Numbered from the stretch's first letter, positions 1-24,503 are shown. The stretch: DNA of 64,000 nt from an uncultured Candidatus Saccharibacteria bacterium (GCA_964636285.1 CAZWQF010000001.1:7048-71047); one strand, 5' to 3'. Notes: generated from the letters alone by a model not told the origin. Numbers and translations: made by a program.

Positions 1-52
1 GAAAAGATTGGGAACTTATTTAACTGAGGTACAGTTGAGTATAGAACGCAAA

Positions 53-92
53 ACGGGCATCTCATCTCCTTTCGGTAAATGTGAATGCCCGT
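53..92 (-). terminator. GC-stem hairpin (acgggcat...atgcccgt) followed by T-tract on minus strand; member of 'aaaacgggc' hairpin family
   Basis: Inverted repeat 53-60/85-92 read directly; reverse complement gives stem-loop plus TTTT, downstream of minus-strand ORF 103-348. Confidence 0.6.
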
Positions 93-102
93 CACAAGAG
101 TC

Positions 103-348
103 TTAACCTTTCGGTTTTATTTTGAAACAGCCCAAAAGAAGCTTGATCACTTCAGGCTCGCGCCCTTGTGGCCACGACGCATCTTCCTTAACTGCTTGCT
201 TTGCTTGTTCTTCGAGCCAATCGAGCTCTTCGTCGGTCCAATAATCGACCACTGGTAAGAAATAGACAAAGAAAAAACCGTGCTCACATTCAATTGTTCC
301 ACTCAACATGCCGCTGCGCCCACTAGCTAGATGTTTTGAGTCTGCCAT
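103..348 (-). CDS. hypothetical protein, GC-rich compositional outlier (81 aa)
   Basis: ORF in six-frame track; local GC clearly higher than surrounding AT-rich DNA; followed by terminator hairpin. Confidence 0.4.
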   Translation of the reverse strand: MADSKHLASGRSGMLSGTIECEHGFFFVYFLPVVDYWTDEELDWLEEQAKQAVKEDASWPQGREPEVIKLLLGCFKIKPKG

Positions 349-522
349 GTTGTTCTCCTGATCAGACTTGCGATTCTAATGAATGTTCTGGGTATTGTAC
401 TTACTGTTAAAAGTATCGTCAAGTACTATGGGGTACTTACTCTAGTTGCTAGAAAACTCAATAATCCATTCGATTCCGAATTTGTCTCTAAACATCCCCG
501 CATAGGAACCCCATGGGCTGTT

Positions 523-768
523 TTAACTTTCATTTACTCGCCCCATAACTTCTGGAACATCGTTGGCAATAAGAAGTGTGGAAGCGCCTATAGGTAGGGC
601 AATATACATTATTTTATTTTCTTCTTTTTCTGAAGGTTGGAAGTCAGCGTTTGCAATATCTTTGAAACGCACTACTTTAGAAAACTCTCCGCCGAATACA
701 GATTTATAAAAAGTAAACGCCTTCTGCGCATTGCCGTTGAAATTTATCCAAGTATTTAATGTTGCCAT
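523..768 (-). CDS. VOC-superfamily PhnB-like protein, apparently truncated (81 aa)
   Basis: N-terminus 'NFNGNAQKAFTFYKSVFGGEF' matches PhnB/3-demethylubiquinone methyltransferase-like VOC domain; length about half of typical. Confidence 0.45.
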   Translation of the reverse strand: MATLNTWINFNGNAQKAFTFYKSVFGGEFSKVVRFKDIANADFQPSEKEENKIMYIALPIGASTLLIANDVPEVMGRVNES

Positions 769-877
769 TTGCTAATGATATCAAATGAAGGGAGTAACAA
801 TAAACTGATTTTTGGCTTCCTCCACTTTGGTGGAAGTAGGAACTTTTGTTTTTAGTATTTGGAAATTAGATAACAAA

Positions 878-926
878 ACGGGCACCAGTCAGAAGTTGGG
901 GATACTGTACTTCTGAAGGTGCCCGT
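878..926 (-). terminator. GC-stem hairpin of the 'aaaacgggc' family (acgggcacc-agt-cagaag...cttctg-aa-ggtgcccgt)
   Basis: Nested inverted repeats read directly; downstream of minus-strand ORF 965-1513; preceded by AAAA on plus strand = T-tract on minus. Confidence 0.6.
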
Positions 927-964
927 TGAATCTTAAGCAGATTCACGCTAAGGGTAGTGCGTGA

Positions 965-1513
965 TCAGCGCATTGCGAAGATGGTCGCTCCCAAGCTGAC
1001 CGTGATGAGAGGGTCTTCGTCTTGCGGGATGGGGATACCCAGCTCCACGAACCGAGTGTGCACCGCTTTGCAGACCGGGCATTTCTCGGTGTGACGGAGC
1101 CAGTCTCCCCAGGAGACAACGCTCGGGTCCGGCCCAAACGCTTCCGCGAGGAGGTGGTTGGAGACCTGCGTCACATCCATGTGGGCGATCAGTTCATAGA
1201 CCCCTGTGGGGATGGGAAAACGCGTCTCGTCCACGTGGATCCAGATCCCGCCCGCCAGCGTGTAGATGTCCACGTGCTCGAGGGCCGTCTCCTTCCCGAT
1301 GTACGCCTTCGGCGCTTCGGAGCTGGAGAGGACCGGGATGTCGATCGAGGACTTGGAGACGTATGCCTTGACCCAGTCGATGACGGCCTTCACATACTCG
1401 TCCCCCTTCTGCTCGTCACCGGCCCAGATGTCCAGTTGGAGCAGGTCGTGGCCGAGGTCGCGCAAATTCTGCTCATTGTCCATACCCGCGTGGAAATAAA
1501 CTGCGTATGACAT
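965..1513 (-). CDS. hypothetical protein, GC-rich (~60% GC) compositional outlier (183 aa)
   Basis: ORF; Shine-Dalgarno AAGGAG 7 nt upstream of ATG (MSYAVYF...); composition foreign to the AT-rich background. Confidence 0.5.
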   Translation of the reverse strand: MSYAVYFHAGMDNEQNLRDLGHDLLQLDIWAGDEQKGDEYVKAVIDWVKAYVSKSSIDIPVLSSSEAPKAYIGKETALEHVDIYTLAGGIWIHVDETRFPIPTGVYELIAHMDVTQVSNHLLAEAFGPDPSVVSWGDWLRHTEKCPVCKAVHTRFVELGIPIPQDEDPLITVSLGATIFAMR

Positions 1514-1654
1514 GTCAATGCTCCTTGGCAAAAGCCACTAATTTGGATGCGCGTATTATAGGTTATTTAATAAATAAAGTCAAACTATAGGTCTTATAGC
1601 TCCCATAGTGGATGAGGTTAAAATTTTTATAGCTCAGCATTGATATTAATTGAA

Positions 1655-1702
1655 CAAAACGGGCACCCTCATATCCTTTCGGAAAATGTGAATGCCCGTT
1701 GT
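1655..1702 (-). terminator. GC-stem hairpin nearly identical to copy at 53-92 (aaaacgggcaccctcatatcctttcggaaaatgtgaatgcccgt)
   Basis: Direct sequence comparison with 51-92; loop 'ctcatatcctttcgg(a/t)aaatgtga' conserved. Confidence 0.6.
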
Positions 1703-1757
1703 AGCTTTTTTATCCCCAAAGGGAAAGGTATAACTACCTACCTTGTGCAGAGTGCTC

Positions 1758-2048
1758 TCAGCCGCGGTTTATCCTCACGGAATTCCCGCTTCCTTGCACC
1801 ACGATGTTGCCATGTCCCCTTACCTGCAAAGGGCCGGACAAGGCTCCCATCTGCAACGTGGCTCCCGGTACAAACGAAGTGCTGCAGTGCTTGCAGCGGA
1901 GAACTTCGCTTGTCCAAGACTGGAGGATGACGATGGTGTCACCCGAGACTAAGAAGTGTGAGCCTTTTTTCTCATTTGGTAACTCAACTTCCCCTCCGCA
2001 CTGCGAACACTTAGCAGGCACAAAGCCTGCATCCGTAATGTCTGGCAT
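1758..2048 (-). CDS. hypothetical zinc-ribbon protein (CxxC...CxxC), GC-rich outlier (~96 aa)
   Basis: ORF with SD AGGAG 7 nt upstream of ATG (MPDITDAG...); CSQCGG and CKHC motifs. Confidence 0.45.
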   Translation of the reverse strand: MPDITDAGFVPAKCSQCGGEVELPNEKKGSHFLVSGDTIVILQSWTSEVLRCKHCSTSFVPGATLQMGALSGPLQVRGHGNIVVQGSGNSVRINRG

Positions 2049-2170
2049 GTAATATCTCCTGAGTCCTGAATAGTGAATTTGCAAAATTATAATATATTTA
2101 AGAGTAGTTGTAAAACTATAGGCCTCCTATTTTCAATGGAAACCTACAGAGCTTTGTTTGTTTGGTCACC

Positions 2171-2644
2171 TTAACTGATTTCCTCAGGTGATAATATTCG
2201 TAGCGTTTTCTGTATAGCAGGTAAATGCTCTGTTTCCCAATGCCAAATGTCATCTTCCAAAAATCTATAAGCTGTCTGATCTTTTCTGGTTTTCCATACA
2301 GGAACTTCCCAAAGATTTTCAGGCAAAGTTTCATACATACTTAGAAGAGTATTTCCTAAAGTAATGAATTCTTTGTACACTTCTTCCCAGCTTCTATTCT
2401 TTCTCATCTCAATCCCTTTAGAATTAAATGCATCAACATCCGGTTCCCAATAGGGCTCTTTGCCTTCTTTTAAAGCTGATAAGCAATCAATATCGTGTAC
2501 CATCCAGTTGCTTAAATGAGCAACTATATCTTTTAAATTCCAAGTATCAAATAAAGTAGTTAATCTTTGGTTTTCAGGAAATTTATCGATTGTGGATATA
2601 AGGTTTTGTTTAACTTGCTTTAATTCAGCGATTTTTTCTTGCAT
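2171..2644 (-). CDS. ClbS/DfsB-family (DUF1706-like) four-helix-bundle protein
   Basis: 157-aa ORF; overall similarity pattern to ClbS/DfsB family recalled from memory, not verified. Confidence 0.4.
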   Translation of the reverse strand: MQEKIAELKQVKQNLISTIDKFPENQRLTTLFDTWNLKDIVAHLSNWMVHDIDCLSALKEGKEPYWEPDVDAFNSKGIEMRKNRSWEEVYKEFITLGNTLLSMYETLPENLWEVPVWKTRKDQTAYRFLEDDIWHWETEHLPAIQKTLRILSPEEIS

Positions 2645-2684
2645 CTACCGAATTATACTTCACATGAAGCGTGGTTAGAACTTT

Positions 2685-3068
2685 TGGCTCCGACGGTAGG
2701 ATTCGAACCTACAACCATCTCCTTACACCTTACCCCATTGTTTCCATTGGGAGTGGACTATATCATCACCTTATTCGTTTTAAGAATTTAGGTGTCGGGC
2801 GCTTAGTCTCTGAACCTTCCACAAAGAAAGTCTTCACCTTCTAGGGGCTTGGCTGCGAATTACCATACTAGATTGTGCTTACTAGCGTAGGCTTTTCGAC
2901 AATTCACCCGATTTTCACTTGTGGATTTCTCCACAAGGCTGCAGTAAACCTCCATGAATTTCTCTATGACAATTTGCACAAACAAGAATTTATAAGTTCT
3001 TGGACATAAAGATTCATGAGGTTGTCAATGTGCCACAGGGAGCCGCGCTACCGTTGCGCTACGTCGGA
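2685..3068 (-). tRNA. tRNA gene interrupted by ~309-nt group I intron in the anticodon loop; anticodon tentatively UGU (Thr). Exon 1 is 3037-3068, exon 2 is 2685-2727
   Basis: Minus-strand read: 5' exon tccgacg-ta-GCGCaacggtaGCGC-g-gctcc-ct; 3' exon tgtaa-ggaga-tggtt-gtaggTTCGAATcctac-cgtcgga-g-CCA; intron contains group I R element GGTTCAGAGACTAAG, S element GATATAGTCC, AGCCAAGCC motif and terminal G. Confidence 0.6.
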
Positions 3069-3217
3069 ATATGCCAGCTTTTTTCAAAGCAAGGGAATTT
3101 TAGCTTATTAGGACGGTGTTTTCAACAGAGATTTAATAAGAGTAGATCAAAGAATTTTAAATATGTTTAATGAAGCGAAAGGCGACGGGCTTAGGCAAAA
3201 AGCCCGTCGCTTTGAAG

Positions 3218-3445
3218 TCACGAGTGTGCCAGCGAAAAATAGTACTCTGGAAAGAGCGCTCTTGCCGTATCTTTTGCGCGCTTGATTCTTACTCCTTCCA
3301 TTACTTGAACAATCGTTTCAGGAGTTACCTTGTCGCGCGCGTTTGGGTCTATCGTTACCTTTATTAGCTTTTTTGAGGTTGGATCCCAAACTCCGTACCC
3401 AAGTCGGACTCGCTGGCCTGTCCAAAGGTTTACTGCAACTTTCAT
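3218..3445 (-). CDS. hypothetical small protein (75 aa)
   Basis: ORF only. Confidence 0.3.
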   Translation of the reverse strand: MKVAVNLWTGQRVRLGYGVWDPTSKKLIKVTIDPNARDKVTPETIVQVMEGVRIKRAKDTARALFPEYYFSLAHS

Positions 3446-3463
3446 ATCACACCCACCTCTGAG

Positions 3464-3769
3464 TCAGCTTTTGGTGCAATTGATTCTGACCTCTTTGCTT
3501 CTGGCTTTTGGCTCAGCGTGTTCTAGCACGGTGAACTGCTGCCGAGGAGAGGGGGAGCCAATAGGGGCCAAGCCGATTTTTTGGCCTTTCTCAAAAGTCC
3601 TGGGTTCGTCCAGCTTGGCGACGATCGCGTAGAATGACCCCAGGTTTGGTGAGTTTCTGTCTGTGGCCCGTCCCGTTCCAATTCGTTTCCATTCCCCTTC
3701 GATAAGGATAAGTAGGTCCATGTGCCGTTCCTTTCTCCTGTCTGATTTTGTCTCAGAATTATTACTCAC
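3464..3769 (-). CDS. hypothetical protein (101 aa)
   Basis: ORF only; moderately GC-enriched. Confidence 0.3.
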   Translation of the reverse strand: MSNNSETKSDRRKERHMDLLILIEGEWKRIGTGRATDRNSPNLGSFYAIVAKLDEPRTFEKGQKIGLAPIGSPSPRQQFTVLEHAEPKARSKEVRINCTKS

Positions 3770-3927: not shown

Positions 3928-4506
3928 ATGATTCTATCTGATAGAGATTTACTCACAGAGATTAAGTCGGGGAGGCTATCTCTTACACCCTTTAATAAAA
4001 GCCATGTTCAACCGGCTAGCATCGACCTCCTTTTGGATTACGAATTTAAAGTCTTTAAAAACTTCATTAAGCCTTATCTTGATCTAAAAGAGCCCGTTTC
4101 TGACTATATGCAAACTGTAAAAATTAAAAAAGATGAGCCATTAATTGTTCATCCAAGAGAATTTGTTTTAGGTACTAGTATTGAATATGTAAAAATACCA
4201 AATAATCTGCTAGCTAGGCTTGAAGGAAAAAGCAGTCTTGGAAGACTTGGACTTATTGTTCATGCCACTGCAGGTTTTATTGATCCAGGTTTTGAAGGTC
4301 AGATTACATATGAGATCACAAATCTTTCAAATATTCCTCTCGCAATCTACGGAGGCATAAAAGTAGCTCAGATGTCGGTTCACACTTTATCAAGCTCTGT
4401 ATTAACCCCTTATGGAGCAAAATCCCTTAACAGTAAATATTTAAAGCAAAAAGGACCAACACCAAGCAAAATGCATTTGAACTTTAAAAAGAATAAGGAT
4501 GTGTAA
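3928..4506 (+). CDS. dcd: dCTP deaminase
   Basis: MILSDRDL... N-terminus and GKSSLGRLGLIVHATAGFIDPGFEG motif typical of Dcd/dUTPase-fold deaminases. Confidence 0.85.
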   Translation: MILSDRDLLTEIKSGRLSLTPFNKSHVQPASIDLLLDYEFKVFKNFIKPYLDLKEPVSDYMQTVKIKKDEPLIVHPREFVLGTSIEYVKIPNNLLARLEGKSSLGRLGLIVHATAGFIDPGFEGQITYEITNLSNIPLAIYGGIKVAQMSVHTLSSSVLTPYGAKSLNSKYLKQKGPTPSKMHLNFKKNKDV

Positions 4507-6124
4507 GATGTTTACAAAAGATGAGAGGCAAAAGTTATCATATTTTTTTACTTCCCTTGATAAAGATGTTTTTGTATTAACCAACCTTCCTGAAATTTTA
4601 AAAGGAGCTTTGTTTTCGCGTTACAGTAGGTCCACAAAACCTCTAAGACAATTATTTCTAGATGAATATTTAAAAAATGAAGAGCTGGGGATTGATAATA
4701 CTGCCCTTTCCCAGACCTCTTTTGACTCGTCAAAAATATTAGCAACTGAAAAAGCGGAAAAGTTTTTCTCAAAGTGGCTTGCAGAATATGGGGATGACTC
4801 TATAGCAGAGCTTGGTGGGGTTCATGTTGGGGTAGAAAATGTAAGTGTCCTTGCAACAAAATCAATGGAAGACAGACGCGTTGGTGTTTCTCCGCTTGAA
4901 AAATCCACTAGATATGTTCGTTTTGATGACAAGGTTAATGGAAAATACAGATTTTATTTTGACAAAAAGATAGAAGCCTCAAAATTTAATTCTCTTTACG
5001 AGAAAACAATGAACGTACTTTTTGACACATACTCTGAGCTTTTAGATCCTATGATGGAGTATTTTAGAACAAAGTTTAAAAAGCCAGAAGATGCTTCAGA
5101 AAAAGCTTATGAGGCCTCAATCAGAGCAAAGGCTTGCGACACTTTAAGAGGATTATTACCTTTATCTACACTTACAAACATGGGGCTTTTTGCAAACGGG
5201 CGTGCATATGAATATATGCTCACAAAGATGTTTGCAGGCACTCTTACAGAAACAAATAGTCTCGCACAGAATATTTATACAGAGCTTGATAAAGTTATCC
5301 ATAATTTTATAGAAAGAATAAAAACTGAAAAAGGAGAGAACTATGTCAAGTATTTAATTGAAACACATAACTTGATAGAAAGCCTTTCTAAAAAGGTGGA
5401 TAAGAAAACTATTTCCAAAGTTGATTCTAATCCAAAACCTCAAGTAGTTTTAGTTGATTTTGATAAAAATGCTGAAGAAAAACTTTGTGCCTCTATTTTA
5501 TTTTCGGTTTCAAATAAACCTCTTAAAAGTTTACTTAGTCTTTCAAAAAAACTTGGCAAAAAGAAAAGAACAGAACTTATAAAAGCTTATGTAGAAAAGA
5601 GGGTAGGCAGATGGAATAAAGTTGGAAGATCCTTTGAAGAGCCCTACTTTCATTTTGAGATAGTCTCAGACTTTGGGGCATATAAAGATCTTGAGAGGCA
5701 TAGAGTACTAACCCAGGATAAGCAGCTCTTTAGTTGTGATCTTGGATATGATATGCCACAAGAAATCAAAGATGCAGGGTTTGAACATAAATACAAAAAG
5801 GCAATGGATTTTGCAAAAAGCACTTTTGTAAAAATATCTGCAAAGTTTCCTCTTGAAGCCCAGTATATTGTAACTCATGGTTATAAGGTTAGATACAGAA
5901 TGAAGATGAACCTTAGAGAAGCATTTCACTTATGCGAATTAAGAAGCTCTCCACAGGGACACCCTGGTTACAGGTTTATTGCGCAAGAAATGTATAAAAG
6001 AATAAAAGAAGCATACCCACTTTTTGGAGAGGTTATGAAGTATGTAAACATGGAAAGCCCAGGTCTTGAAAGACTTTCTTCAGAAGTAAGAAAGGAGGAA
6101 AAGCTGAAAAAGCTTCATAGTTAA
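4499..6124 (+). CDS. thyX: FAD-dependent thymidylate synthase ThyX-like, unusually long (541 aa; apparent internal duplication or large insertion)
   Basis: N-half has ThyX-like ARVS-type start (ALFSRYSRS) and DRRVGVSPLEKSTRY (RHR-x7-S-like motif); C-half has ERHRVLTQ and NLREAFHLCELRSSPQ matching the ThyX C-terminal block. Confidence 0.55.
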   Translation: MCKMFTKDERQKLSYFFTSLDKDVFVLTNLPEILKGALFSRYSRSTKPLRQLFLDEYLKNEELGIDNTALSQTSFDSSKILATEKAEKFFSKWLAEYGDDSIAELGGVHVGVENVSVLATKSMEDRRVGVSPLEKSTRYVRFDDKVNGKYRFYFDKKIEASKFNSLYEKTMNVLFDTYSELLDPMMEYFRTKFKKPEDASEKAYEASIRAKACDTLRGLLPLSTLTNMGLFANGRAYEYMLTKMFAGTLTETNSLAQNIYTELDKVIHNFIERIKTEKGENYVKYLIETHNLIESLSKKVDKKTISKVDSNPKPQVVLVDFDKNAEEKLCASILFSVSNKPLKSLLSLSKKLGKKKRTELIKAYVEKRVGRWNKVGRSFEEPYFHFEIVSDFGAYKDLERHRVLTQDKQLFSCDLGYDMPQEIKDAGFEHKYKKAMDFAKSTFVKISAKFPLEAQYIVTHGYKVRYRMKMNLREAFHLCELRSSPQGHPGYRFIAQEMYKRIKEAYPLFGEVMKYVNMESPGLERLSSEVRKEEKLKKLHS

Positions 6125-9318: not shown

Positions 9319-10506
9319 TTATTTGGAAGTGCTATCAGTTGAGACAGTAACCTTTGCGCCTTCCGTAAGTTTGTCACCTCTGACAAATTGTGCGTTCTCA
9401 AAAATGTCCGTGGTTTCTTTTACCTCAGCAAAATCATCGGTTACAAGACCTTCCTCAATCCTGACTTTGTTTGCTTTTCCGTCTTTGATTTTCCATCCGT
9501 ATGGGCCTTTTTCGTCTTCATCAATGTATTCAACAGGGAGGGTTAAAACATTCTCTCTTGTTTGGGTCATGATTTTTATGTCTCCTGAAAGCCCTATTAT
9601 TTTAAGAACATCCTCTTTTTCTATTGCTACTTTTACTTTTACAGCAGTTGCTCCGCTATCAGTAATAACTGTTTTTGCTCCAACCTCGGCTAGCGTTCCA
9701 GATATCTTTTCGTCACCATAGCTGTCTAGGGAGATCTCCACTTTTTGACCTTTTGATACTAACCTTACGTCTGTCTCATCAACCTCTGCCTCAAAAACTA
9801 TATTTTTTGGATTTACTACGGAAAAAAGCTTTGTTCCCGCCATAACCTGCTGCCCTTCGTTTATACCTTCTAGTGCCAAAATTCCATCTACCGGCGATAC
9901 TACGCTTGAACTCTTAAAATCTGTCCAAGCAGATATGTAGGTTGCATAAGTTGCGGAAACATTTTGATTTGTGTAGGTCTCTTTGCTTTGAAGCATTGCA
10001 AGTTCGGCTTCTGCGCCTTTTAGTGATGCCTCCGCGGACTTCCAAACATTTTTGTCTTCCGTGTCCCTATCGCTGTCATATTTTTCTTTGGCAACTATAT
10101 TTAGCCTCTTCTTTGCGTCTACATTAGCTCTTGCAGCTGACAGCTCCTTTTGGTAGGTGTCCTGCCCACTTTTTGCAAGAAGGTATGAAGAGTAAGCAGA
10201 ATCTGCTGCAGCCTTCAAAGAGACCGGATCCAAATCTACTATGGCTTGACCCTTTTTAACTTCAGTGCCGTTCGCAAGATTAACTTTTTTGACGGTTGCT
10301 GAAACAATAGAGTACTTTGTGCTTCCGTCGGTCACCTTTGTTTCACCAGAAGCGGAAACCATTTTGGTAATGGTTCTTTTTTCTACCTTTGATTCAGTCA
10401 CTTTTGTTGCCGCCGTTTTTGTTCTAAAAATAAAGAATGCTCCTATTGCAACAACAATAAGAATTACGGCCACAAGTTTTTTATGAGTTTTAATATACCC
10501 AATCAC
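9319..10506 (-). CDS. periplasmic adaptor/membrane fusion protein (HlyD/MacA-like)
   Basis: N-terminal TM, coiled-coil region, beta-barrel-like C-terminus; operon with MacB-like genes. Confidence 0.7.
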   Translation of the reverse strand: MIGYIKTHKKLVAVILIVVAIGAFFIFRTKTAATKVTESKVEKRTITKMVSASGETKVTDGSTKYSIVSATVKKVNLANGTEVKKGQAIVDLDPVSLKAAADSAYSSYLLAKSGQDTYQKELSAARANVDAKKRLNIVAKEKYDSDRDTEDKNVWKSAEASLKGAEAELAMLQSKETYTNQNVSATYATYISAWTDFKSSSVVSPVDGILALEGINEGQQVMAGTKLFSVVNPKNIVFEAEVDETDVRLVSKGQKVEISLDSYGDEKISGTLAEVGAKTVITDSGATAVKVKVAIEKEDVLKIIGLSGDIKIMTQTRENVLTLPVEYIDEDEKGPYGWKIKDGKANKVRIEEGLVTDDFAEVKETTDIFENAQFVRGDKLTEGAKVTVSTDSTSK

Positions 10507-10568
10507 AGGCTTATTCTACCTTATTATAAGTATTTGACCAATGAGAACATATCGAATATCATCAATAC

Positions 10569-10853
10569 ATGTCATTAAAATTACAATGCTCAAATTGCTT
10601 TAAGGCATTAAGTGTGCCTTCAAGAATGAAATTATATTTACACTTGGAAAAAGTTGGGGAAGCAACGGTAACCCAGCTTGTTAACGGTTCTGGCTTAAAA
10701 CAGCCTACAGTTTCTTATCATCTAAAAGAGATGGAGCACGGGGGTGTTTTGTCCTCAAGAAAAGAAGGAAAAGAAGTTTATTACAAAATTGCGAATGCCT
10801 GTCCCCATGACAGCAAGCAGTGCGTTATCACAGGAATTTATGCTAACAATTAA
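10569..10853 (+). CDS. ArsR/SmtB-family HTH transcriptional regulator (likely start at MKLYLHL, ~10626)
   Basis: wHTH pattern ...ATVTQLVNGSGLKQPTVSYHLKEMEHGGVL...; immediately upstream of suf operon. Confidence 0.65.
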   Translation: MSLKLQCSNCFKALSVPSRMKLYLHLEKVGEATVTQLVNGSGLKQPTVSYHLKEMEHGGVLSSRKEGKEVYYKIANACPHDSKQCVITGIYANN

Positions 10854-11586
10854 AGACCTTAAGGTTTCAGTAGAAGACAAAAGTATTCTAAAAGGCGTTT
10901 CATTGCATGTTAAGCATGGAGAAGCCCACGCAATAATGGGCCCTAACGGTTCTGGAAAAAGCACTCTAGCCCAAACTTTGATGGGCCATCCAAAATATAC
11001 CGTTGAGTCTGGAAGCGTTTCCCTTAACGGGAAAGACCTATTGGAGCTTGATACAACAACAAGAGCTTCTGAAGGTTTGTTTTTGGCTTTTCAGTATCCA
11101 AGTGAAATTCCGGGAGTTACAATCGCCAATTTTTTAAGACTTGTTTACAACAATAAAATGAAACGAACAGGTGGTAGGGAGCTGTCACCAGCTCTTTTTA
11201 GAAAAGTGCTTGAAGAAAAAATGGAAGAGCTTCATATGAATAAAGCTTTTGCTCAAAGATATCTAAACGAAGGGTTCTCAGGTGGAGAAAAAAAGAGAAT
11301 GGAAGTTTTGCAAATGGCTATTTTGGAGCCAAAGATTGCAATTCTTGACGAAACTGACTCGGGGCTTGATATCGACGCTCTTCAGATTGTTTCGCACGGA
11401 GTAAATCTTTTAAGAGAAAAGCTTGGAATGTCTGTGTTGATCATTACTCACTATGCAAGGATTTTAAATTACATAAAACCAGACCATGTCCATGTTTTCA
11501 AAGATGGAAAAGTTATCAGAGAGGGCGGGGCTGAGCTTGCTATTGAGCTTGAAAAAACTGGATATAAAAACTATGACTCAAACTAA
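10840..11586 (+). CDS. sufC: Fe-S cluster assembly ATPase SufC
   Basis: [42 protein letters not shown]; LSGGEKKR. Confidence 0.9.
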
Positions 11587-12979
11587 TCCAATTGATGACT
11601 CCTATAAACTTGGCTTTCACGACGATATTAAATACTCTTTTAAATCACAAAAAGGGCTTAATGAGAATATTGTGAGACAAATTTCTCAGATGAAAGGGGA
11701 GCCCGAATGGATGCTTGAGTATAGGCTTTCCGCATACAAAACTTTCTTGGAAAAGCCTATGCCCATGTGGATGGCGGACGAAAAGGATATAAATGACATT
11801 AAATTTGATGAAATTTATTACTACCTAAAACCCACTGATAAACAGGAGAAAAATTGGGATGATGTTCCAGACGATATTAAAAGAACTTTTGACAAAATTG
11901 GTGTTCCTCAAGCCGAGAGAGAGTTTTTGGGAGGAGTTAAATCCCAATACGACTCAGAAGTAGTTTATGGTTCTGTGTTAAAGGAGCTTGAAGACCAAGG
12001 TGTCATATTTTTAGGAACAGATGAGGCCCTTAAAAAATACCCAGAGATTTTTAAACAGTATTTTGGAACTGTAGTTCCATCTAGAGACAACAAGTTTTCT
12101 GCGTTAAACAGTGCAGTTTGGAGTGGGGGCTCCTTTGTATACATTCCAAAAGGTGTAAAAGTAGAAAGGCCTTTGCAGGCTTACTTTAGAATTAATTCTC
12201 AAAACGCAGGTCAGTTTGAAAGAACTTTAATAATTGCGGAAGAGGGGAGTTTTGTACATTATGTAGAAGGCTGCTCTGCTCCTTCGTTTAGTAGTGGCTC
12301 TTTGCACTCGGCGGTTGTAGAAATAATTGTAAAAGAAGGTGCTAGGGTTAGGTACACAACAATTCAAAACTGGTATAAAAATGTTTTCAACCTTGTTACA
12401 AAAAGAGCTATAGCCCATAAGAATGCAACTATGGAATGGGTGGACGGAAATCTTGGTTCAAGGCTTACGGTAAAGTTTCCTTCGGTATATTTGGTTGGCG
12501 AAGGGGCAAAAGGTGAAATCCTTTCAATAGCGTATGCCGGAGAAGGTCAACATCAACACGCAGGCGGAAAAATAGTTCATGGAGCTCCAAATACTTCGTC
12601 AAGAATTACATCCAAATCTATAAGCGCAAAAGGAGGTAGGGCTTCTTACAGGGGTTTAATTTCTGTAGTTCCGGGAGCCACAAATTCCAAATCAAGAGTT
12701 GAGTGCGACGCTTTAATTCTGGATTCCGATTCAAGAACAGACACATACCCAGTTATGAAAATTAAAGAGCCCGAAGTGAGTATTGAGCATGAAGCCTCCG
12801 TAAGCAAGGTTGGAGAAGATCAGCTTTTTTATTTAATGAGCAGGGGATTATCAGAAGAAGAGGCTATGAATCTTGTTGTCTCTGGATTTATTGAGCCAAT
12901 TGTAAAAGAGCTCCCGCTAGAATATGCAATTGAACTAAACAAGCTCATCGAGCTTGAAATGGAAGGGAGCGTTGGCTAA
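11573..12979 (+). CDS. sufB: Fe-S cluster assembly protein SufB
   Basis: Length and conserved SufB blocks (HYVEGCSAP...; C-terminal [13 protein letters not shown]). Confidence 0.9.
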
Positions 12980-16148: not shown

Positions 16149-16236
16149 GGAGGGTTGGCAGAGCGGTAATGCAGCGGCTTGCTAAGCCGTGACGGTTTAT
16201 AGCCGTCCACAGGTTCAAATCCTGTACCCTCCGCCA
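16149..16236 (+). tRNA. tRNA-Ser (anticodon GCU), long variable arm
   Basis: Manual fold: acceptor ggagggt/accctcc, anticodon loop ttGCTaa, long variable arm, T-loop ttcaaat, CCA encoded. Confidence 0.8.
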
Positions 16237-16249
16237 TAAGAAGCCTAAT

Positions 16250-16843
16250 ATGGATTATCTTAAGACTGTTATAGGTGTTTTATCCCCAAAACCTCAAGAA
16301 AAAGACTCACCAAAAAATGAGTTTGTACCTCCGGTAGCGGATAGAGAAAAAGATGTCCCGCCAAATAGAGAGGTTTTATTTTCTTGGGAGTCCCCTGAGA
16401 GAACATTTGTTCCAAGGTCTAGAGAATACTTTAGAAGAATCATTTCCCTTCTTTTCATTGTTAGTGCTGTGCTTATACTTGCAGGGCAGTTTTTGCTTGT
16501 AGCACTTCTTGTTGCACTTGCCGTTCTTTATTACGTTTTAAGTTCGGTTCCGCCTTCTAATGTAAAACATGAGCTTGATAACTACGGAATATTTTATTTG
16601 GGCAGGCAGTATTATTGGCCTGAGCTAAAATTCTATTTTTTCACGAATGAAGCCGGCGAAAATATCCTAAATGTTGATACAAGGGATCCCTATCCAGGAA
16701 GGCTCATTTTGCTTCTTGGAAAAATTAAACCTGAAGAGGTCAAAGAAGTGATGAATAAGTATCTCCCGTTACGAGAAGTTCCCCCAGAGACCATGTTTGA
16801 TAAGGCTTTCAAGTCTGTTTCCAGCAAATTAAACCTTGATTAA
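16250..16843 (+). CDS. hypothetical membrane protein
   Basis: ORF with central double TM segment. Confidence 0.4.
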   Translation: MDYLKTVIGVLSPKPQEKDSPKNEFVPPVADREKDVPPNREVLFSWESPERTFVPRSREYFRRIISLLFIVSAVLILAGQFLLVALLVALAVLYYVLSSVPPSNVKHELDNYGIFYLGRQYYWPELKFYFFTNEAGENILNVDTRDPYPGRLILLLGKIKPEEVKEVMNKYLPLREVPPETMFDKAFKSVSSKLNLD

Positions 16844-16886
16844 CTTCTGTGCTACACTCAAATAGTTTTACTCTTAAGGGTTCTTT

Positions 16887-16963
16887 GCGCCTGTAGCTCA
16901 GGGGATTAGAGCGCAACTTTGCGGAAGTTGAAGTCGGAGGTTCGAATCCTCTCAGGCGCACCA
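16887..16963 (+). tRNA. tRNA-Arg (anticodon GCG by manual fold; anticodon assignment tentative)
   Basis: Cloverleaf: acceptor gcgcctg/caggcgc, D-arm gctcaggggattagagc, anticodon stem caact/agttg loop ttGCGga, T-arm ggaggttcgaatcctct, CCA. Confidence 0.7.
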
Positions 16964-17079
16964 ATCATTTAAATATTTGAAAACTAAAACTTAATGGTCT
17001 TGCATGAGATATATTTGTGAGGCCCTTTTGGTTACCCTCTAGGGCCTCACAAAACAGTGTTGCTGATGACACAGAAAGG

Positions 17080-17577
17080 TCACGAATTCTTCAGAAGTCT
17101 ACCGAGCCCGCCGACGGAGTCCTTACCCCTGAAAAACATGAAAAATACATCGGCCCCTCTCACAAGAGCTGACCCAACTGGGACCTCGCTTGCCCGAATT
17201 GGAGTTTGATAGTCATCCTCCTGCTTCAAGGCAACAACGGGAAAGCCGTCTCTTCCCATGCGTTTGTACAGAGTCCATTCTCCAAGGTTGTAGACTTTGG
17301 AAATTTCTGGATCCCACTGGCGGACTTTCCTCATCGTTCCTTCAAACGTGTCGCTTTGAGCCGCTCCTGACAGAAGGTGCATCCTGATCTCAAAATCAGG
17401 TGCCCAAAAAGCATCGAAAATCTCCCTATCCCCGAATGGCTCCTTTGTAATCTGCACAACACCCCCCAAATGAGGTCTTATAGTAGCAGACAACTGTGAT
17501 GCCCATCTTGACAACTCCTTATTAAGAAAGATTGGTCTGTAGTTAAAGACTATACCTGATTCATCCAAACAATTCAA
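17080..17577 (-). CDS. hypothetical protein, GC-enriched outlier (165 aa)
   Basis: ORF; composition differs from background. Confidence 0.4.
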   Translation of the reverse strand: MNCLDESGIVFNYRPIFLNKELSRWASQLSATIRPHLGGVVQITKEPFGDREIFDAFWAPDFEIRMHLLSGAAQSDTFEGTMRKVRQWDPEISKVYNLGEWTLYKRMGRDGFPVVALKQEDDYQTPIRASEVPVGSALVRGADVFFMFFRGKDSVGGLGRLLKNS

Positions 17578-17628
17578 ATACTATAAGTTATATGAAAAAA
17601 AGTGTTGCGTGATTCTATAAAAAAAGAA

Positions 17629-17687
17629 ACGGGCCCTCTTTGATCCAAACATGTGAGCTGAGACAGACATGATCAAAGGGGGCCCGT
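17629..17687 (-). terminator. large GC-stem hairpin (acgggccctctttgatc...gatcaaagggggcccgt) of the 'aaacgggc' family followed by T-tract on minus strand
   Basis: Inverted repeat read directly; RC ends ...gggcccgtttcttttttt. Confidence 0.6.
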
Positions 17688-17689
17688 AG

Positions 17690-18340
17690 ACAAGAGCAAG
17701 CAGCTTCTTATGGCGCTGGGATTCGCTGGGGAACTTGGGCTTGGCGGGATCTACTTGGGGGCCTCGGGTCTTCTAGCAACCTCAAACGCCGCCTAACCAA
17801 TGGGGCACTGAGTCCCTACTAGCTCCCCGCGTGGCTCCTGACCGGAACAGGTCAGTTCGCGCTTAGCCTTTACCATTCTCTCTCAATCCGATTTAGCTGC
17901 TTCTCTATATCCCAGATTAGGGTAAGTTCACTGAATTTCAGCAAACTTTTTTAGTACTGTGACTTTACAAAACTACCGAGTTCTTGTCAACTTTGTGGCT
18001 ACGTAGCCACAGGTAGTTTGCGCTTTGAAATGGGCCACCCACAAGCAAGTCTGCTTTGCTGGACTGAAGCGACTTTGCCTCTCTGTCCCAGACCTGCAGG
18101 TGGGTGGCCGGGCATCCGCGTGTACTGTTTGGAGTAGAGCCGAGCACTAAAGAAAAGTTTAAACCTACCACAGTGCCCCGTGAGTTTCTGGGGAGTAACT
18201 TAGGGGCTAGGAGTAATGTGGTCAAGTAAGAAACTTCTGGGATCTTTTTCTGTGCTCAGGTTGTACACGCAGTTTGCTTCGAGTGTTGTGCCAGAAAGTT
18301 TACCAAACCCTCAATACCTGTCAACATAACCTTGTAATAG
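17690..18340 (-). ncRNA. candidate structured GC-rich non-coding transcript (identity unknown)
   Basis: ~650 bp GC-rich stretch without convincing ORF; nested helices (aaactacc...gtggctacgtagccac...ggtagttt); plausible minus-strand promoter TTGACA-16/17-TAAACT near 18290-18324; intrinsic terminator at 17629-17687. Confidence 0.25.
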
Positions 18341-18370
18341 TACAATCCATGTTGCTATAATATACTTGCT

Positions 18371-18862
18371 ATGAAGAAGTTTCTAAAAACCGAATATCTA
18401 GCTTTCATGACTCCTATTATTGCCGCACTTATTTTTGGCTACTTTTTTGGGCATCCTCCCGTTAAGGGAAACTTATATTATGTAAAAAGAGTTGTTGACG
18501 GCGACACTATAGAACTCGCAACAGGCGCTACAGTAAGACTTATTGGTATTAACACTCCAGAGACTGTAAAACCCAATTCACCTGTAGAGTGTTTTGGCCC
18601 AGAGTCTTCAGAATTTAGTAAAAAACTAATGCAGAGAAAATACGTCAGGCTTGAATCTGATAAGGACAACATGGATCAGTATGGAAGAATTCTCAGGTAT
18701 GTTTATTTGGATGATCAAATGGTGAATATGGAACTTGTTCGTGAAGGGTTCGCAAAAGCTTACTACTTTTCACCAAATAATAAATACAAAACAGAGTTTG
18801 ACCTTGCACAGACAGAAGCACAGTCAACAGACAAAGGTCTTTGGGGAAAGTGTACTAAATAG
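18371..18862 (+). CDS. thermonuclease (staphylococcal nuclease/SNase family), membrane-anchored/secreted
   Basis: RLIGINTPE...ECFGPE...YGRILRYVY...ELVREGFA typical SNase residues; N-terminal TM. Confidence 0.85.
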   Translation: MKKFLKTEYLAFMTPIIAALIFGYFFGHPPVKGNLYYVKRVVDGDTIELATGATVRLIGINTPETVKPNSPVECFGPESSEFSKKLMQRKYVRLESDKDNMDQYGRILRYVYLDDQMVNMELVREGFAKAYYFSPNNKYKTEFDLAQTEAQSTDKGLWGKCTK

Positions 18863-18871
18863 TTATTAGGG

Positions 18872-18945
18872 CCGGGGAGGGCGCCCGAACGACCGCCCGC
18901 AGACCCGTAAGGGTCGAGGACAGGGAGGAAGGGTGCCCTCCCTGT
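18872..18945. repeat. GC-rich structured intergenic repeat, copy A (inverted partner at 34437-34503)
   Basis: Core 'cgaacgaccgcccgcagacccgtaagggtcgaggacagggagg' matches reverse complement of 34437-34503 with about 3 mismatches; lies at a convergent gene junction. Confidence 0.7.
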
Positions 18946-18950
18946 GCTAG

Positions 18951-19340
18951 TTACATGTTGTACTTTTCCATCAAGGCGTAAGCTTCTTCGTCTGAAAGGC
19001 CAAGCTTCTTTGTGTCAGCGCTTGAGGGCAAGTACCTGTACTTTTTCATATCAACATGAAAAGTATTTGTGTCCTTACTAGTTGAGACGAATACTCCTTC
19101 GGATTCTAAAAGCTTTTTTTGAAGTTCTTGAGGACATTCTGGATTTTTAATGCTGATCATTCCGGCGTTGTTCAAAACTCTCCACCAAGGAATCTCCTCA
19201 CCAGAAGAAAATAAAAACCAGCCTACTTGCCTTGCAGCTCTTGGCACACCTGCCATAAATGCAACTTGGCTGTAGCTAACAACTCTTCCTTTTGGAACGC
19301 TTTTTATAATTCTAAAAATACTATTTTTAAATTCTGACAC
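18951..19340 (-). CDS. alkyltransferase-like (ATL) protein of the MGMT/Ogt DNA-binding family lacking the catalytic Cys
   Basis: VPKGRVVSYSQVAFMAGVPRAARQVG helix-turn-helix block of MGMT family; active-site PCHRV replaced by PWWRV as in Atl proteins. Confidence 0.65.
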   Translation of the reverse strand: MSEFKNSIFRIIKSVPKGRVVSYSQVAFMAGVPRAARQVGWFLFSSGEEIPWWRVLNNAGMISIKNPECPQELQKKLLESEGVFVSTSKDTNTFHVDMKKYRYLPSSADTKKLGLSDEEAYALMEKYNM

Positions 19341-19352
19341 AGGGGGATTTTA

Positions 19353-20336
19353 TCAAAGATCCAGAATAAAATATGCAATCGCAAAATATACACCAAGGCT
19401 TGTTAGATCCTGAATAATTGTTGCTAATGGCCCTGTTCCAAGAGCCGGATCTTTTCCAAATTTTTTAAAGAGGGTTGGGATTATAATTGCAACGGGCGAA
19501 GCTACTGCAAAGTTAATTACCATTGTTAAAGCAAGTATAGTAGCAACTTCTGTACTTCCCTTCCAAAAATATACTATGGTTCCAAGAGAGAGTCCTACGA
19601 TAGTTCCAAGAATAGTGGTTGAGCTAAGGTCTTTAAATATATATTCCAAAAAGTTGAACCTGTCTTTGATTGCCATTGTCCTGATAAATAAAGTTTCGCT
19701 TTGAACATTAACAGCCCCTCCAAGATACACAACCGAAGGGATAAACAGTGCAAGAATAATGTTTTTTTGGAGGTCTCCCTCAAACATATGCAGGAAAGTA
19801 GCTGATAGCATTCCTCCAAGAAGGCCCACAATTAACCATGGAATCCTTGCTTTTACGGCATTAAATACGGATCCAGAAAGAACAAGGTCATATATTTTTT
19901 CATGAGAAAGTCCTGCATGCCTTACTGTTTTTGCAGAGTAAAGTTGGCCTACCAGCTTTAGAAGAGATTCGGCGCTAATTATTCCAACAAGCCTTTTTTG
20001 CTCGTCTACAACTGGAATATCGGTAATATCGTGGTGGATTGCCAGCGCAACAGCCCTGTCTACCGGTGAGTTTTCAAACACATACTTAATATCTATTTCC
20101 ATTTTGTCAGTTACCTTTTGACTGTAATCAAGTTCAAGAAGCTCTTGAAGTGACATCACTCCAACCAGTTTTTTGTCCGAATCAGTAAAGTAAATATGGT
20201 TTAGTTTTCTATAGTTTTCTGGGTGTTTAACAAGGTGCTCTTCAATGTTTTGAACAGGTTCATTAATCAAAAAAGTTGGAATTCCCGCAGTGATAAAATT
20301 TTTGCTAGGAGTAACATTTAGGCCGACAGTACCCAT
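19353..20336 (-). CDS. mgtE: magnesium transporter MgtE-like (CBS pair + MgtE TM domain)
   Basis: Tandem CBS motifs followed by 5-TM MgtE-type domain. Confidence 0.7.
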   Translation of the reverse strand: MGTVGLNVTPSKNFITAGIPTFLINEPVQNIEEHLVKHPENYRKLNHIYFTDSDKKLVGVMSLQELLELDYSQKVTDKMEIDIKYVFENSPVDRAVALAIHHDITDIPVVDEQKRLVGIISAESLLKLVGQLYSAKTVRHAGLSHEKIYDLVLSGSVFNAVKARIPWLIVGLLGGMLSATFLHMFEGDLQKNIILALFIPSVVYLGGAVNVQSETLFIRTMAIKDRFNFLEYIFKDLSSTTILGTIVGLSLGTIVYFWKGSTEVATILALTMVINFAVASPVAIIIPTLFKKFGKDPALGTGPLATIIQDLTSLGVYFAIAYFILDL

Positions 20337-20445
20337 TCACTTATTATAGGCGAAAAGGCGCATATGTCCTAGCCTTCCTGAGGCCTGCTAATTTGAGAGT
20401 GCCTGTGGTAGGTGATAAACTACGGATTACGAGAGTAAAAAATGT

Positions 20446-20535
20446 GGAGGGGTAGCCAAGCGGTCATACGGCGGCGCTCTCGAAAAGCGTTTGGGGGCAA
20501 CTCCAACGCGGGTTCGAATCCCGCCCCCTCCGCCA
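20446..20535 (+). tRNA. tRNA-Ser (anticodon CGA), long variable arm
   Basis: Acceptor ggagggg/cccctcc, anticodon stem gcgct/agcgt loop ctCGAaa, long variable arm, T-loop ttcgaat, CCA. Confidence 0.8.
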
Positions 20536-20541
20536 AAAAAT

Positions 20542-21150
20542 ATGAATTTAGAAAAAGAAGTTATAGGCGAAATAAATAAAGACATTTTTACTTCAAAGAA
20601 ATCAGAATTTATAAACAAATTTGGTAACCCTGTGATAAAAAGGAGGTTGGGCATGATGGTTTTTGATAGAAATAATCCCCAAGTGGATACAAGAGTAAGA
20701 GTTACGAACGGCAAAGCTGAGATCATGCAAAAAGTTATCCAGTCTGACGACGGTCATGGGCACTCCGAAAAATTAGAAATTTCAATAAAAATACCAGATA
20801 ACGTAGAAGCGGCTTTTGATGCATTCAAAACATACAGAAATTTACTGGCTAAAAATTACAGTGAAAAACTAATTCTTCTTTTAGTTCAGACAGAAAACTT
20901 TATTTGGTCAACAAAAGATTTTGAATTAAAACTGAGTTATCAATTTGGGAAAAATGATTATTTCACTTTTGAAATAGAAGCATTGTCTGAAGGTTGTGAT
21001 GTAAGGGAGACTCAGAAAAGTCTAGGCTTAGCCCCAATTGAAAACCACGCTAGCCCTGAGAGAAAAATCTTTAGAGCAACCCAGGTTGATCTAGATGCAA
21101 GTAAAATGTCTGACCAAGAAGTTAAAGCAGTGATCGGACACTATTTTTAA
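20542..21150 (+). CDS. hypothetical protein (start moved to MNLEKEV downstream of tRNA)
   Basis: ORF; track start at 20491 overlaps tRNA-Ser and is unlikely. Confidence 0.4.
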   Translation: MNLEKEVIGEINKDIFTSKKSEFINKFGNPVIKRRLGMMVFDRNNPQVDTRVRVTNGKAEIMQKVIQSDDGHGHSEKLEISIKIPDNVEAAFDAFKTYRNLLAKNYSEKLILLLVQTENFIWSTKDFELKLSYQFGKNDYFTFEIEALSEGCDVRETQKSLGLAPIENHASPERKIFRATQVDLDASKMSDQEVKAVIGHYF

Positions 21151-21917
21151 TGACAGCCTTAATCACAGGGTCCTCATCAGGAATAGGATTAGAACTTGCC
21201 AAAATCCACGCATCAAAAGGCGGGGATCTTGTTCTTGTTTCGCGGGATATTAACTCCTTAAACTTACTCAAAGCTCAGCTAGAATCAGACTTCAAAGTCA
21301 AAGTTTATGTTTTGGAGAAAGATCTTTGTGTCCCCAATTCGGCTTTGGATGTTTTTAATTTCACACAGCAAAACAATCTGCAAATTGACTACCTGATCAA
21401 CAACGCTGGGTTTGGCCTCTACGGACTTTTCAAAGACACCGAATGGGAAAAGGAATCTCAAATGATAAACCTAAACATGCTTACCTTAACTCACCTCACA
21501 AAGCTATACCTTCCTCAAATGATAAACAGAAAATCAGGAAAAATAATGAACGTTGCATCAACTGCGGCTTTTCAGCCCGGGCCTCTTATGTCAGTTTATT
21601 ATGCTACAAAAGCTTATGTTCTAAGTTTCTCTCAGGCTCTTGCAAACGAAGTTAAAGAATACGGAATTACCGTTACGGCACTTTGTCCTGGTGCAACACA
21701 AAGCAATTTTCAAAAAGTTTCAGGGATGGATAAAAGCGGACTTGTGAGAGGCAAAAAACTTCCAACCTCAAAAGAAGTTGCTGAGTTTGGATATAGCGCA
21801 ATGCTAAGAGGAGATCTGATTGCTACACATGGGTTAAAAAATAAAATAATGACAGTCTTGGTTAGGTTTGTCCCTAATAGCATTTTACTATCAGTCACAA
21901 GAAAAATTCAGTCCTGA
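21150..21917 (+). CDS. SDR-family short-chain dehydrogenase/reductase
   Basis: TGSSSGIG Rossmann motif, NNAG, YxxxK (YYATKAY). Confidence 0.85.
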   Translation: MTALITGSSSGIGLELAKIHASKGGDLVLVSRDINSLNLLKAQLESDFKVKVYVLEKDLCVPNSALDVFNFTQQNNLQIDYLINNAGFGLYGLFKDTEWEKESQMINLNMLTLTHLTKLYLPQMINRKSGKIMNVASTAAFQPGPLMSVYYATKAYVLSFSQALANEVKEYGITVTALCPGATQSNFQKVSGMDKSGLVRGKKLPTSKEVAEFGYSAMLRGDLIATHGLKNKIMTVLVRFVPNSILLSVTRKIQS

Positions 21918-21948
21918 TTTGTCACACGTTATGTGAAATAATGCATGT

Positions 21949-23944: not shown

Positions 23945-23947
23945 TTT

Positions 23948-24466: not shown

Positions 24467-24503
24467 TGATGGTTATTTTAACTTAAATTTGTATAATTAG
24501 CCC

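Follow-up and report, generated by a model that had tools for sequence, protein, structure and literature searches.

Morons are reportedly autonomous extra genes in lambdoid prophages. A moron is a single open reading frame (ORF) with its own promoter and a factor-independent terminator; it has an odd composition, sits between unrelated genes, and often carries cargo with no known function. Integron gene cassettes are another arrangement of small, co-oriented ORFs of unknown function, with palindromes that have conserved arms and a variable centre. In tRNA-linked genomic islands, atypical accessory genes adjoin a tRNA gene. Here, we compare these systems to a locus at one end of a 64,000-nucleotide (nt) stretch of DNA from an uncultured bacterium (GCA_964636285.1, CAZWQF010000001.1:7048-71047), which we call the window. 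The locus contains three short ORFs (A, B, and C) on the minus strand, near a tRNA gene with a putative intron. We think that these, along with similar ORFs elsewhere in the window, are insulated, moron-like, chromosomal single-gene expression units, with laterally acquired ORFan cargo under native or clade-derived control elements. We give this explanation a probability of about 0.6.

The window has a GC content of about 39% and belongs to the cellular genome of a Microgenomates-type bacterium of the candidate phyla radiation (CPR). It encodes SHMT, SufBD, DnaG, MetRS, and a cluster that resembles a type IV secretion system (T4SS). Together with an 8.3-kb contig from the Logan assemblies (L002) that extends the window to the left, we inspected 72 kb of this genome. 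Reading 5' to 3' along the minus strand, the first 2.65 kb of the window contain the interrupted tRNA gene, a DUF1706/ClbS-like gene, unit C, unit B, a PhnB/glyoxalase-like remnant, and unit A.

Control elements and hairpins

The three ORFs were called on the minus strand at 103-348 (A, 81 amino acids), 965-1513 (B, 182 amino acids from its ATG), and 1758-2048 (C, 96 amino acids from its ATG). Scans for promoters and Shine-Dalgarno (SD) sites identified a promoter and a 5' untranslated region (UTR) for each, also on the minus strand, at 349-431 for A, 1514-1591 for B, and 2049-2122 for C. The promoters are of the sigma70 type and match 10-11 of the 12 consensus positions: TTGACG-17-TACAAT at 422-394 for A, TTGACT-17-TATAAT at 1583-1555 for B, and TTTACA-17-TATAAT at 2114-2086 for C. 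Immediately 5' of each -35 box is the element CCTATAGT or CCATAGT (at 431-425 in unit A). The whole promoter is CCTATAGTTTGACT-N17-TATAAT for B (1591-1555) and CCTATAGTTTTACA-N17-TATAAT for C (2122-2086), and these two promoters are 70% identical over 40 nt. The leaders are 35-45 nt long (about 40 nt for A), with an AGGAG core (AAGGAG for B) that lies 6-8 nt 5' of the ATG.

Each ORF is followed, 10-60 nt past its stop codon, by a GC-rich hairpin with a stem of 10-19 bp. Pattern matching and folding placed these hairpins on the minus strand at 53-92 (unit A), 878-926 (unit B), and 1659-1699 (unit C). The pattern ACGGGC-N10-40-GCCCGT occurs four times in the window, compared to an expectation of 0.01, and none of 100 shuffled sequences had as many. 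The fourth match is at 3185-3207, and a fifth ACGGGC-stem hairpin, with a longer interior, is at 17629-17687. All five come after GC-rich units on the minus strand. When folded on that strand, the hairpins have energies of -21 to -30 kcal/mol and z scores of -3.9 to -7.0 (A: -21.3 kcal/mol, z -3.9; B: -30.3 kcal/mol, z -7.0, with a stem of ~18 bp; C: -23.0 kcal/mol, z -5.0). UUUUG comes next (at 52-48 in unit A), so that the T-tract is four U, then G, and then U-rich sequence. With a GC-rich stem-loop near the stop codon and a short U-tract, these are predicted to be intrinsic (Rho-independent) terminators. (A simple terminator scanner that considered loops of 3-8 nt overlooked these long-stem hairpins.)

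The hairpins are related to each other. Between 51-92 and 1655-1702, identity is 94% over 32 nt, including the loop, and 91% over 45 nt with one indel; the hairpins of A and C are true paralogues. The hairpin of B shares just the base of its stem with that of C (872-886 and 1653-1667 are identical at 15/15 nt; ACGGGCACC and GGUGCCCGU). The outer stem, ACGGGCA/TGCCCGT, is conserved in all three units, and the interior of B differs. In contrast, the ORFs are unrelated to one another and to everything else in the window. Because related promoters and terminators surround unrelated ORFs, the impression of a conserved scaffold with variable cargo is real.

The layout that an earlier reading of the sequence (the original prediction) had proposed was largely borne out. 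The minus-strand ORFs, their strong SD sites, the GC-stem hairpins with T-tracts (although the tract is merely UUUUG and then U-rich), the near identity of two hairpins over ~45 bp, the interleaved AT-rich genes, and the cassette-like arrangement were all found at or near the positions it gave. It also raised the concern that the hairpin might be a ubiquitous, ordinary terminator. This is not the case: ACGGGC-stem hairpins number five in the 64 kb of the window and zero in the adjoining 8.3 kb, and a search of 921 kb from related genomes gave one exact match. The ACGGGC stem is specific to this genome, unlike the promoter, which is found across the clade (see below).

The hairpins could instead be sites for recombination or transposition, such as the attC sites of integrons or the palindromes of REP or IS200-type elements, which would capture or move the units. 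The units are co-oriented, and each ORF is closed by an imperfect palindrome of 40-50 nt. The retention of the outer stem around the differing interior of B, and the concentration of the stem core in this genome, would also fit. So would the tendency of short-read assemblies to end at or near the repeated hairpin. As for a dispersed repeat (REP- or MITE-like), two of the hairpins in the 72 kb are nearly identical copies, and the other three have the stem core in common. But we did not see an integron integrase, attI, or a RAYT or IS200-type gene, and there was no integrase among the ORFs scanned within ~12 kb. By inspection, the ends of the hairpins are unlike RYYYAAC...GTTRRRY: none of the five has GTTRRRY at its 3' end, and only B has RYYYAAC, by chance, at its 5' end. 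Integron cassettes are promoterless and are expressed from Pc, whereas each of these units has its own promoter, and what lies upstream of the array is the DUF1706 gene and the tRNA. Outside of the promoters and terminators, there is no conserved junction or target-site duplication. The A/C-type hairpin is absent from JGI metagenome contigs, and the hairpins' position and U-tract fit plain intrinsic terminators. We consider capture by hairpins to be improbable.

Cargo, promoter class, and origin of the units

We then considered the composition of the cargo. ORF B is unmistakably foreign. Its GC content is 0.60, compared to 0.39 for the window, and its GC content at the first, second, and third codon positions is 0.61, 0.38, and 0.82, which is a textbook coding signature of a ~60% GC genome. 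Native genes have third-position GC (GC3) of 0.27-0.35. B encodes isoleucine with ATC (14/14), aspartate with GAC (14/15), leucine with CTC or CTG (13/15), and arginine with CGN (5/5); CGN accounts for 14/167 arginine codons in native genes. In other words, the codon choice of B is almost the inverse of the host's. B would have been acquired very recently, or from a donor with ~60% GC. ORF C (GC 0.54, GC3 0.62) and ORF A (GC 0.46, GC3 0.45) are also unlike the flanking genes, and their signal is weaker. In two of the three ORFs, the codon usage is clearly foreign and rich in GC. Thus, the original prediction was right that the ORFs are compositionally foreign, but its figure of ~55-60% GC for all three holds for B and not for A and C.

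Similar units are present elsewhere in the window. On the far side of the tRNA, scans for ORFs, SD sites, and folds identified a GC-elevated pair on the minus strand (3182-3769), which comprises ORF E (3464-3769) and ORF D (3218-3445), with the ACGGGC-stem hairpin at 3182-3210 on the 3' side. A GAGG core precedes the ATG of D, whose GC3 is 0.43. The start of E is uncertain, as there is no SD site before the listed GTG and there is an AAGGAA-like site before an internal ATG. Unit H (43854-44086, minus strand) is an SD-led, GC-rich single gene between folD and rpmH. It encodes a membrane protein of 53 amino acids (43854-44015), and its promoter, CCATAGTAGTTGACT-17-TACAAT, begins at 44086. Unit G (52361-52985, plus strand) is another SD-led, GC-rich single gene, inside the T4SS-like cluster. 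Its ORF (52429-52917) encodes a small membrane protein of 162 amino acids. Its promoter has CCTATAGTATAAT, there is an AAGGAGG site, and its predicted terminator is a hairpin of 19 bp with a folding energy of -42.9 kcal/mol. There are more GC-rich segments around 17.0-18.3 kb.

Most native genes seem to be expressed differently. Among the larger native ORFs, 7/51 have an SD core, and 15/51 look leaderless, with a TATAAT-like box that is 4-11 nt 5' of the start codon. An SD-type core and a predicted leader are present in units A, B, C, D, G, and H. Given this difference, the units are set apart by GC3, by their mode of initiation, by the strength of their promoters, and by their dedicated terminators.

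The proteins encoded by these units are nearly without relatives. ORFs A-G (F is described below) had no match in Pfam, PHROGs, NCBIfam, PADLOC, or the sequences in PDB, which agrees with the original prediction that the first three have no recognisable family. In a word-indexed search of 5.8e9 clusters, B and C hit only themselves, and clustering at 90% identity left each of the tested units as a singleton. A full HMMER comparison of B to 1.8e9 representatives found one weak, partial relative: P0010, a protein of 103 amino acids that is 37% identical to residues 101-172 of B (its C-terminal ~70 amino acids). (A second match, P0009, is a repeat-protein artefact and was rejected.) We found nothing for the units with tblastn or blastn against collections of phages (50,697 records) and plasmids, and scans of IMG/VR and of JGI metagenomes found no close relative of A and nothing for B, C, or G. 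ORF A is acidic and lacks a transmembrane segment. ORF C has the expected zinc-ribbon motifs, with CxxC at residues 14-17 and 53-56, a zinc-ribbon-like N-terminal part, and a glycine-rich beta tail. Single-sequence AlphaFold2 models were unusable, with a predicted local distance difference test score (pLDDT) of 40 (B) or 52 (C).

Small, lineage-restricted, variable accessory genes that are independently expressed are typical of orphan immunity genes. By this analogy, the cargo might be modules for toxin immunity or for defence against phages, as had been suggested. But none of the ORFs from A to G had a hit in PADLOC, Pfam (including the Imm families), NCBIfam, PHROGs, or PDB, and there is no adjacent toxin, nuclease, ATPase, or polymorphic-toxin gene. 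A role in immunity or defence seems quite unlikely.

Another concern is that the GC-rich pieces might result from contamination or from a chimeric assembly, as the source is a metagenome-assembled genome (MAG) and the GC content jumps sharply, from 0.35 to 0.63. Also, both Logan contigs end inside the PhnB-like gene, between 619 and 693, and the Logan contig L129 stops 21 nt past the hairpin of unit C, at position 1638 of the window. However, Logan contigs that were assembled independently from two sequencing runs pass from AT-rich to GC-rich sequence at the same junctions, with 100% identity. The GC-rich stretches are ORFs that are correctly placed between promoter, SD site, and terminator, and a contig end just past a repeated hairpin is what would be expected for a repeat. 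A chimera is extremely improbable.

Next, we examined the promoter. Among the matches listed for CCTATAGTTTKAC-N18-TATAAT (RNCCTATAGTTTGAC-N18-TATAAT) in GTDB species representatives, there are more than 120 loci, compared to roughly 8 expected (an estimate). Almost all of the listed matches are in MAGs of WWE3, WS6, or the Microgenomates group (Levy-, Davies-, Curtiss-, Gottesman-, Woese-, Shapiro-, and Roizmanbacteria) or in generically labelled MAGs. Two bases upstream of the pattern, at a position that was not selected for, 95% of 124 sites have a purine, so the extended form is R-N-CCTATAGTTTGAC-N18-TATAAT. The excess of matches and the flanking purine imply that this is a genuine, clade-wide extended promoter and is not specific to the cassettes. 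(We had considered the CCTATAGT element as a cassette-specific signal, and rejected this because the element is clade-wide and also drives leaderless genes.) We did not find anything in the literature on leaderless genes or promoters in CPR bacteria.

The genes behind the clade promoter fall into two classes. Many of them start 6-12 nt past the -10 box, which is a leaderless layout, and these (n=52) have a GC content that is +0.005 relative to their locus, a GC3 of 0.29, and a median length of 233 amino acids. The SD-led genes (n=33) have a GC content that is +0.050 relative to their locus, a GC3 of 0.47, and a median length of 129 amino acids, and on their 3' side they usually have a hairpin and T-run of their own. 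The difference in GC is significant (p=2e-7, Mann-Whitney test). The window's units are extreme examples of this widespread class.

Two kinds of related contigs illustrate this. First, the contig that encodes P0010, the sole relative of B, consists of SD-led single-gene units over 13 kb. Seven have a CTAYAGGTTGAC-N17-TATAAT promoter, and most of the units end in a terminator of their own. The gene for P0010 has the same type of promoter and lies in an AT-rich genome, with a GC3 of 0.31. Second, the nearest relatives by ThyX are the contigs L004 and L005 (66% and 65% identity). L004 begins inside dcd, so the variable side is absent. L005 has an intronless tRNA-Asn beside thyX, and its set of small genes is a different one. 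Among its ORFs is a GC-rich zinc ribbon (GC3 0.60), which is not homologous to unit C, with a promoter that is nearly identical to that of unit B. There are no orthologues of the units in L004 or L005, and a ThyX-anchored scan of GTDB genomes with a single protein found no relative.

These comparisons raise the possibility that the units are a native, vertically inherited class of the clade, with GC-rich codons that are due to selection or local mutation. The units use the clade's extended promoter, being SD-led is associated with short length and higher GC across many MAGs from Microgenomates, WWE3, and WS6, and B's only relative is in an AT-rich genome behind the same type of promoter. But the GC3 of B (0.82) and its near-complete switch in codons are far beyond known expression-linked bias. 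Furthermore, the GC3 of the units ranges from 0.43 to 0.82, as expected for different donors or ages, and all units are singletons that lack orthologues in the two nearest available relatives. A native class is unlikely.

We favor lateral acquisition of the cargo. From one unit to the next, the promoters are paralogues, as are the terminators; the scaffold would therefore be native or clade-derived, and the cargo would be foreign. In this model, the housekeeping RNA polymerase would start at the strong R-N-CCTATAGT-TTGAC-N17/18-TATAAT promoter. The 5' UTR of 35-45 nt, with its AGGAG, would lead to SD-dependent initiation, while most native neighbours lack an SD site. Transcription would end 10-60 nt past the stop codon, at the GC-rich hairpin (10-19 bp) and UUUUG, and the hairpin would insulate each unit from its neighbours.

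Several points weigh against this model. Without homologues, no donor can be named, so the argument for lateral transfer would be purely compositional, and by that measure A (GC3 0.45) and D (GC3 0.43) are just mildly atypical. The U-tract is short (UUUUG). The contrast in Pfam content behind the clade promoter (0/10 sampled SD-led genes have a family, versus 3/10 leaderless controls) is weak and not significant. The inspection spans just 72 kb of the genome, and the promoters, leaderless starts, and terminators are all predicted from sequence. A phage source for the promoter, which we also considered, is unsupported, as the promoter is nearly absent from the viral contigs in IMG/VR (three matches to the pattern). 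Finally, simple transfer from a distant donor does not easily account for a clade-specific promoter before a foreign ORF. The donor may instead belong to the clade's gene pool (in which GC is 48-55% in some members) or to its mobile elements, or else promoters may have been captured.

More speculatively, Microgenomates, WWE3, and WS6 might share a pool of portable modules, each with promoter, SD site, ORF, and terminator, in which the promoter and terminators act as homology arms or recognition sites. ORFs could be swapped or captured, for instance after natural transformation, which would amount to a cassette system without an integrase and without attC. We view this as a tentative and rather unlikely idea. 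If it is true, then the modules could be told from the core genome by their mode of translation initiation and their raised GC.

The interrupted tRNA-Asn gene and the surrounding region

The tRNA gene at 2685-3068 (minus strand) contains a match to Rfam's group I intron family (RF00028) at 2734-2957, with a score of 103.6 bits, compared to the gathering score of 50. The 5' exon is at 3068-3035 and the 3' exon is at 2725-2685. The intron (3034-2726) is 309 nt long, lacks an ORF, and sits between U35 and U36. Joining ...GGCTCCCTGT to TAAGGAGA... yields a 75-nt tRNA-Asn(GUU), and ARAGORN identifies the spliced sequence as tRNA-Asn(gtt). (ARAGORN misses the interrupted gene unless it is spliced by hand.) So, the claim of an intron-containing tRNA gene is probably correct, with a predicted group I intron. 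Splicing 2 nt earlier would give tRNA-Thr(UGU). We favor asparagine because the intronless homologue in L005 (at ~5020-5095) has the same anticodon arm, CTGTTAA; because the discriminator base is G73; and because inspection of the splice site revealed a possible P1 helix of 6 bp, in which CUGU|GG pairs with CUGCAG, with a U.G pair at U35.

The original prediction also proposed that the tRNA is the integration site of an island. Under this explanation, a site-specific recombinase would have inserted a classical genomic island into the 3' end of the tRNA-Asn gene. The array does begin ~40 nt from the 3' end of the tRNA, after one native-looking gene. Accessory genes are present to the left, where the 8.3-kb extension has AT-rich genes for a copper ATPase, CsoR, TetR, NUDIX, and MazG, and the surroundings of tRNA-Asn and thyX in L005 are also full of small, variable genes. 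On the other hand, we found no recombinase or integrase among the ORFs scanned in 103-3769 or among the called genes of the left extension. The direct repeat of the tRNA's 3' end that was expected further left is absent from the window and the extension: 20-mers from the 3' exon, with up to 4 mismatches, matched only the similar T-arm of tRNA-Arg. No exact copy of the 3' end is present in any locus that we compared. Nor is there a contiguous atypical block that is bounded by the tRNA, as the GC excess is limited to single ORFs, with native AT-rich genes interleaved, and GC-elevated units are also found on the tRNA's right side and, 15-50 kb away, at 17, 44, and 52 kb. The left extension has no GC island and no further hairpin. 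An island of this kind is very improbable. The tRNA-Asn gene is a neighbour within a variable, accessory-gene-rich stretch, not a demonstrated integration site.

The AT-rich genes between the units were also as expected. The DUF1706/ClbS-like gene (2171-2644, minus strand) scores below the Pfam cut-off and has a DUF1706 homologue on a related contig. It is AT-rich and native, with TATAAT 7 nt 5' of its ATG, which is a leaderless layout. The PhnB/glyoxalase-like gene (443-768, minus strand), also AT-rich and with a leaderless layout, is a pseudogene with sub-threshold Pfam hits (to the fragment at 523-768). It has an in-frame TAA at 523-525, the conserved C-terminal piece (WGSYAGMFRDKFGIEWIIEF) continues in the same frame, and an internal deletion has removed ~30-40 residues. 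The promoter of unit A begins directly past this pseudogene's stop codon.

Two other GC-rich features lie near 17 kb. Promoter, hairpin, and folding evidence identified a unit of ~600 nt without a long ORF at 17629-18325 (minus strand). It has a sigma70-like promoter (TTGACA..TAAACT, near 18325-18298) and a terminator with a ACGGGCCC stem at 17629-17687. Its longest ORFs do not exceed 86 amino acids, it has no match in Rfam at E<=1, and it has no homologue in 921 kb of related loci. Its folding energy is -214 kcal/mol, compared to -182 +/- 6.8 kcal/mol for shuffled sequences (z -4.7). We consider it a candidate for an unclassified structured RNA, or else for a decayed unit. ORF F (17080-17577, minus strand; GC 0.47) would encode 165 amino acids from a TTG, lacks a convincing start signal, and has an AAGGAG-ATG pair nearby in another frame. 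The stem of its downstream hairpin (~17013-17051) has a different sequence. ORF F may be a decayed unit.

Some features of the wider region should also be mentioned. A tRNA-Arg with anticodon GCG (16887-16963) would read the CGC and CGU codons that are nearly unused by native genes, and three tRNA-Ser genes (GCU, CGA, and GGA) are found within 9 kb (16149-25216). The T4SS-like cluster (44-61 kb) encodes a TraG/VirB4 P-loop ATPase (47289-49406), a PrgI-like protein (50014-52170), and a protein of 1050 amino acids with an M23 peptidase (54413-57565), and several of its genes have SD sites, unlike most of the window. ThyX (4499-6124, plus strand) is of the long form (541 amino acids), and its best-scoring relatives outside the immediate lineage include many archaeal DPANN MAGs (Aenigmarchaeota and Micrarchaeota; 45-50% identity) as well as CPR bacteria. 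In L004, the SufB homologue (10074-11915) has hits to Hint/intein domains, and the window's SufB (11486-12979) does not.

Comparison with known systems

The genomes of CPR bacteria are tiny, with accessory content that is largely "dark matter." At this locus, probable recent acquisitions share a signature: an SD-led 5' UTR, raised GC3, a dedicated terminator, and a strong promoter of the clade's type. If this signature holds genome-wide, then gene flow in uncultured bacteria of the Microgenomates type could be charted cheaply. It would also provide native promoter and terminator parts for emerging CPR genetics, as well as a defined set of strongly expressed ORFans that could be tested for roles in the symbiotic lifestyle. 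We think that the clade-wide split between native genes and SD-led, GC-rich ORFans, the tRNA-Asn intron, and the RNA candidate at 17.7-18.3 kb are worth following up. On present evidence, the array is not a new class of mobile element.

The intron resembles the group I introns in other bacterial tRNA genes, which are known from tRNA-Leu(UAA), tRNA-fMet, tRNA-Arg(CCU), and tRNA-Ile(CAU). Like those, it is an ORF-less intron of a self-splicing type, it lies in the anticodon loop, its 5' splice site follows a U, and its last base is G. Unlike those, its host is tRNA-Asn(GUU) and it is inserted between positions 35 and 36. We know of no described group I intron in a bacterial tRNA-Asn. In the full-text literature on "group I intron" with "tRNA-Asn," the matches listed concern organelle genomes or unrelated topics.

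As in tRNA-linked islands, atypical accessory genes adjoin a tRNA here. But the DNA searched has no integrase or flanking repeat, the locus is a mosaic of AT-rich and GC-rich genes, and equivalent units are found on both sides of the tRNA and elsewhere. The array shares with integron cassettes the co-oriented small ORFs and the arms and centres of its palindromes. It differs in that it has no IntI or attI, no match to the R''/R' core, terminator-like U-tracts, and a promoter for each unit.

The closest parallel is to morons. Each unit appears to be a single ORF between its own promoter and its own terminator, with atypical composition, unrelated neighbours, and cargo without a known function. 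Unlike morons, the units are chromosomal and lie outside of any prophage: they are in a CPR genome, neither they nor their neighbours have PHROG hits, and the flanking genes are cellular. They also use the promoter of their host's clade, and their control sequences are paralogous between units. Finally, they differ from most of their neighbours in how translation begins, as the units are SD-led and most neighbouring genes lack an SD site.

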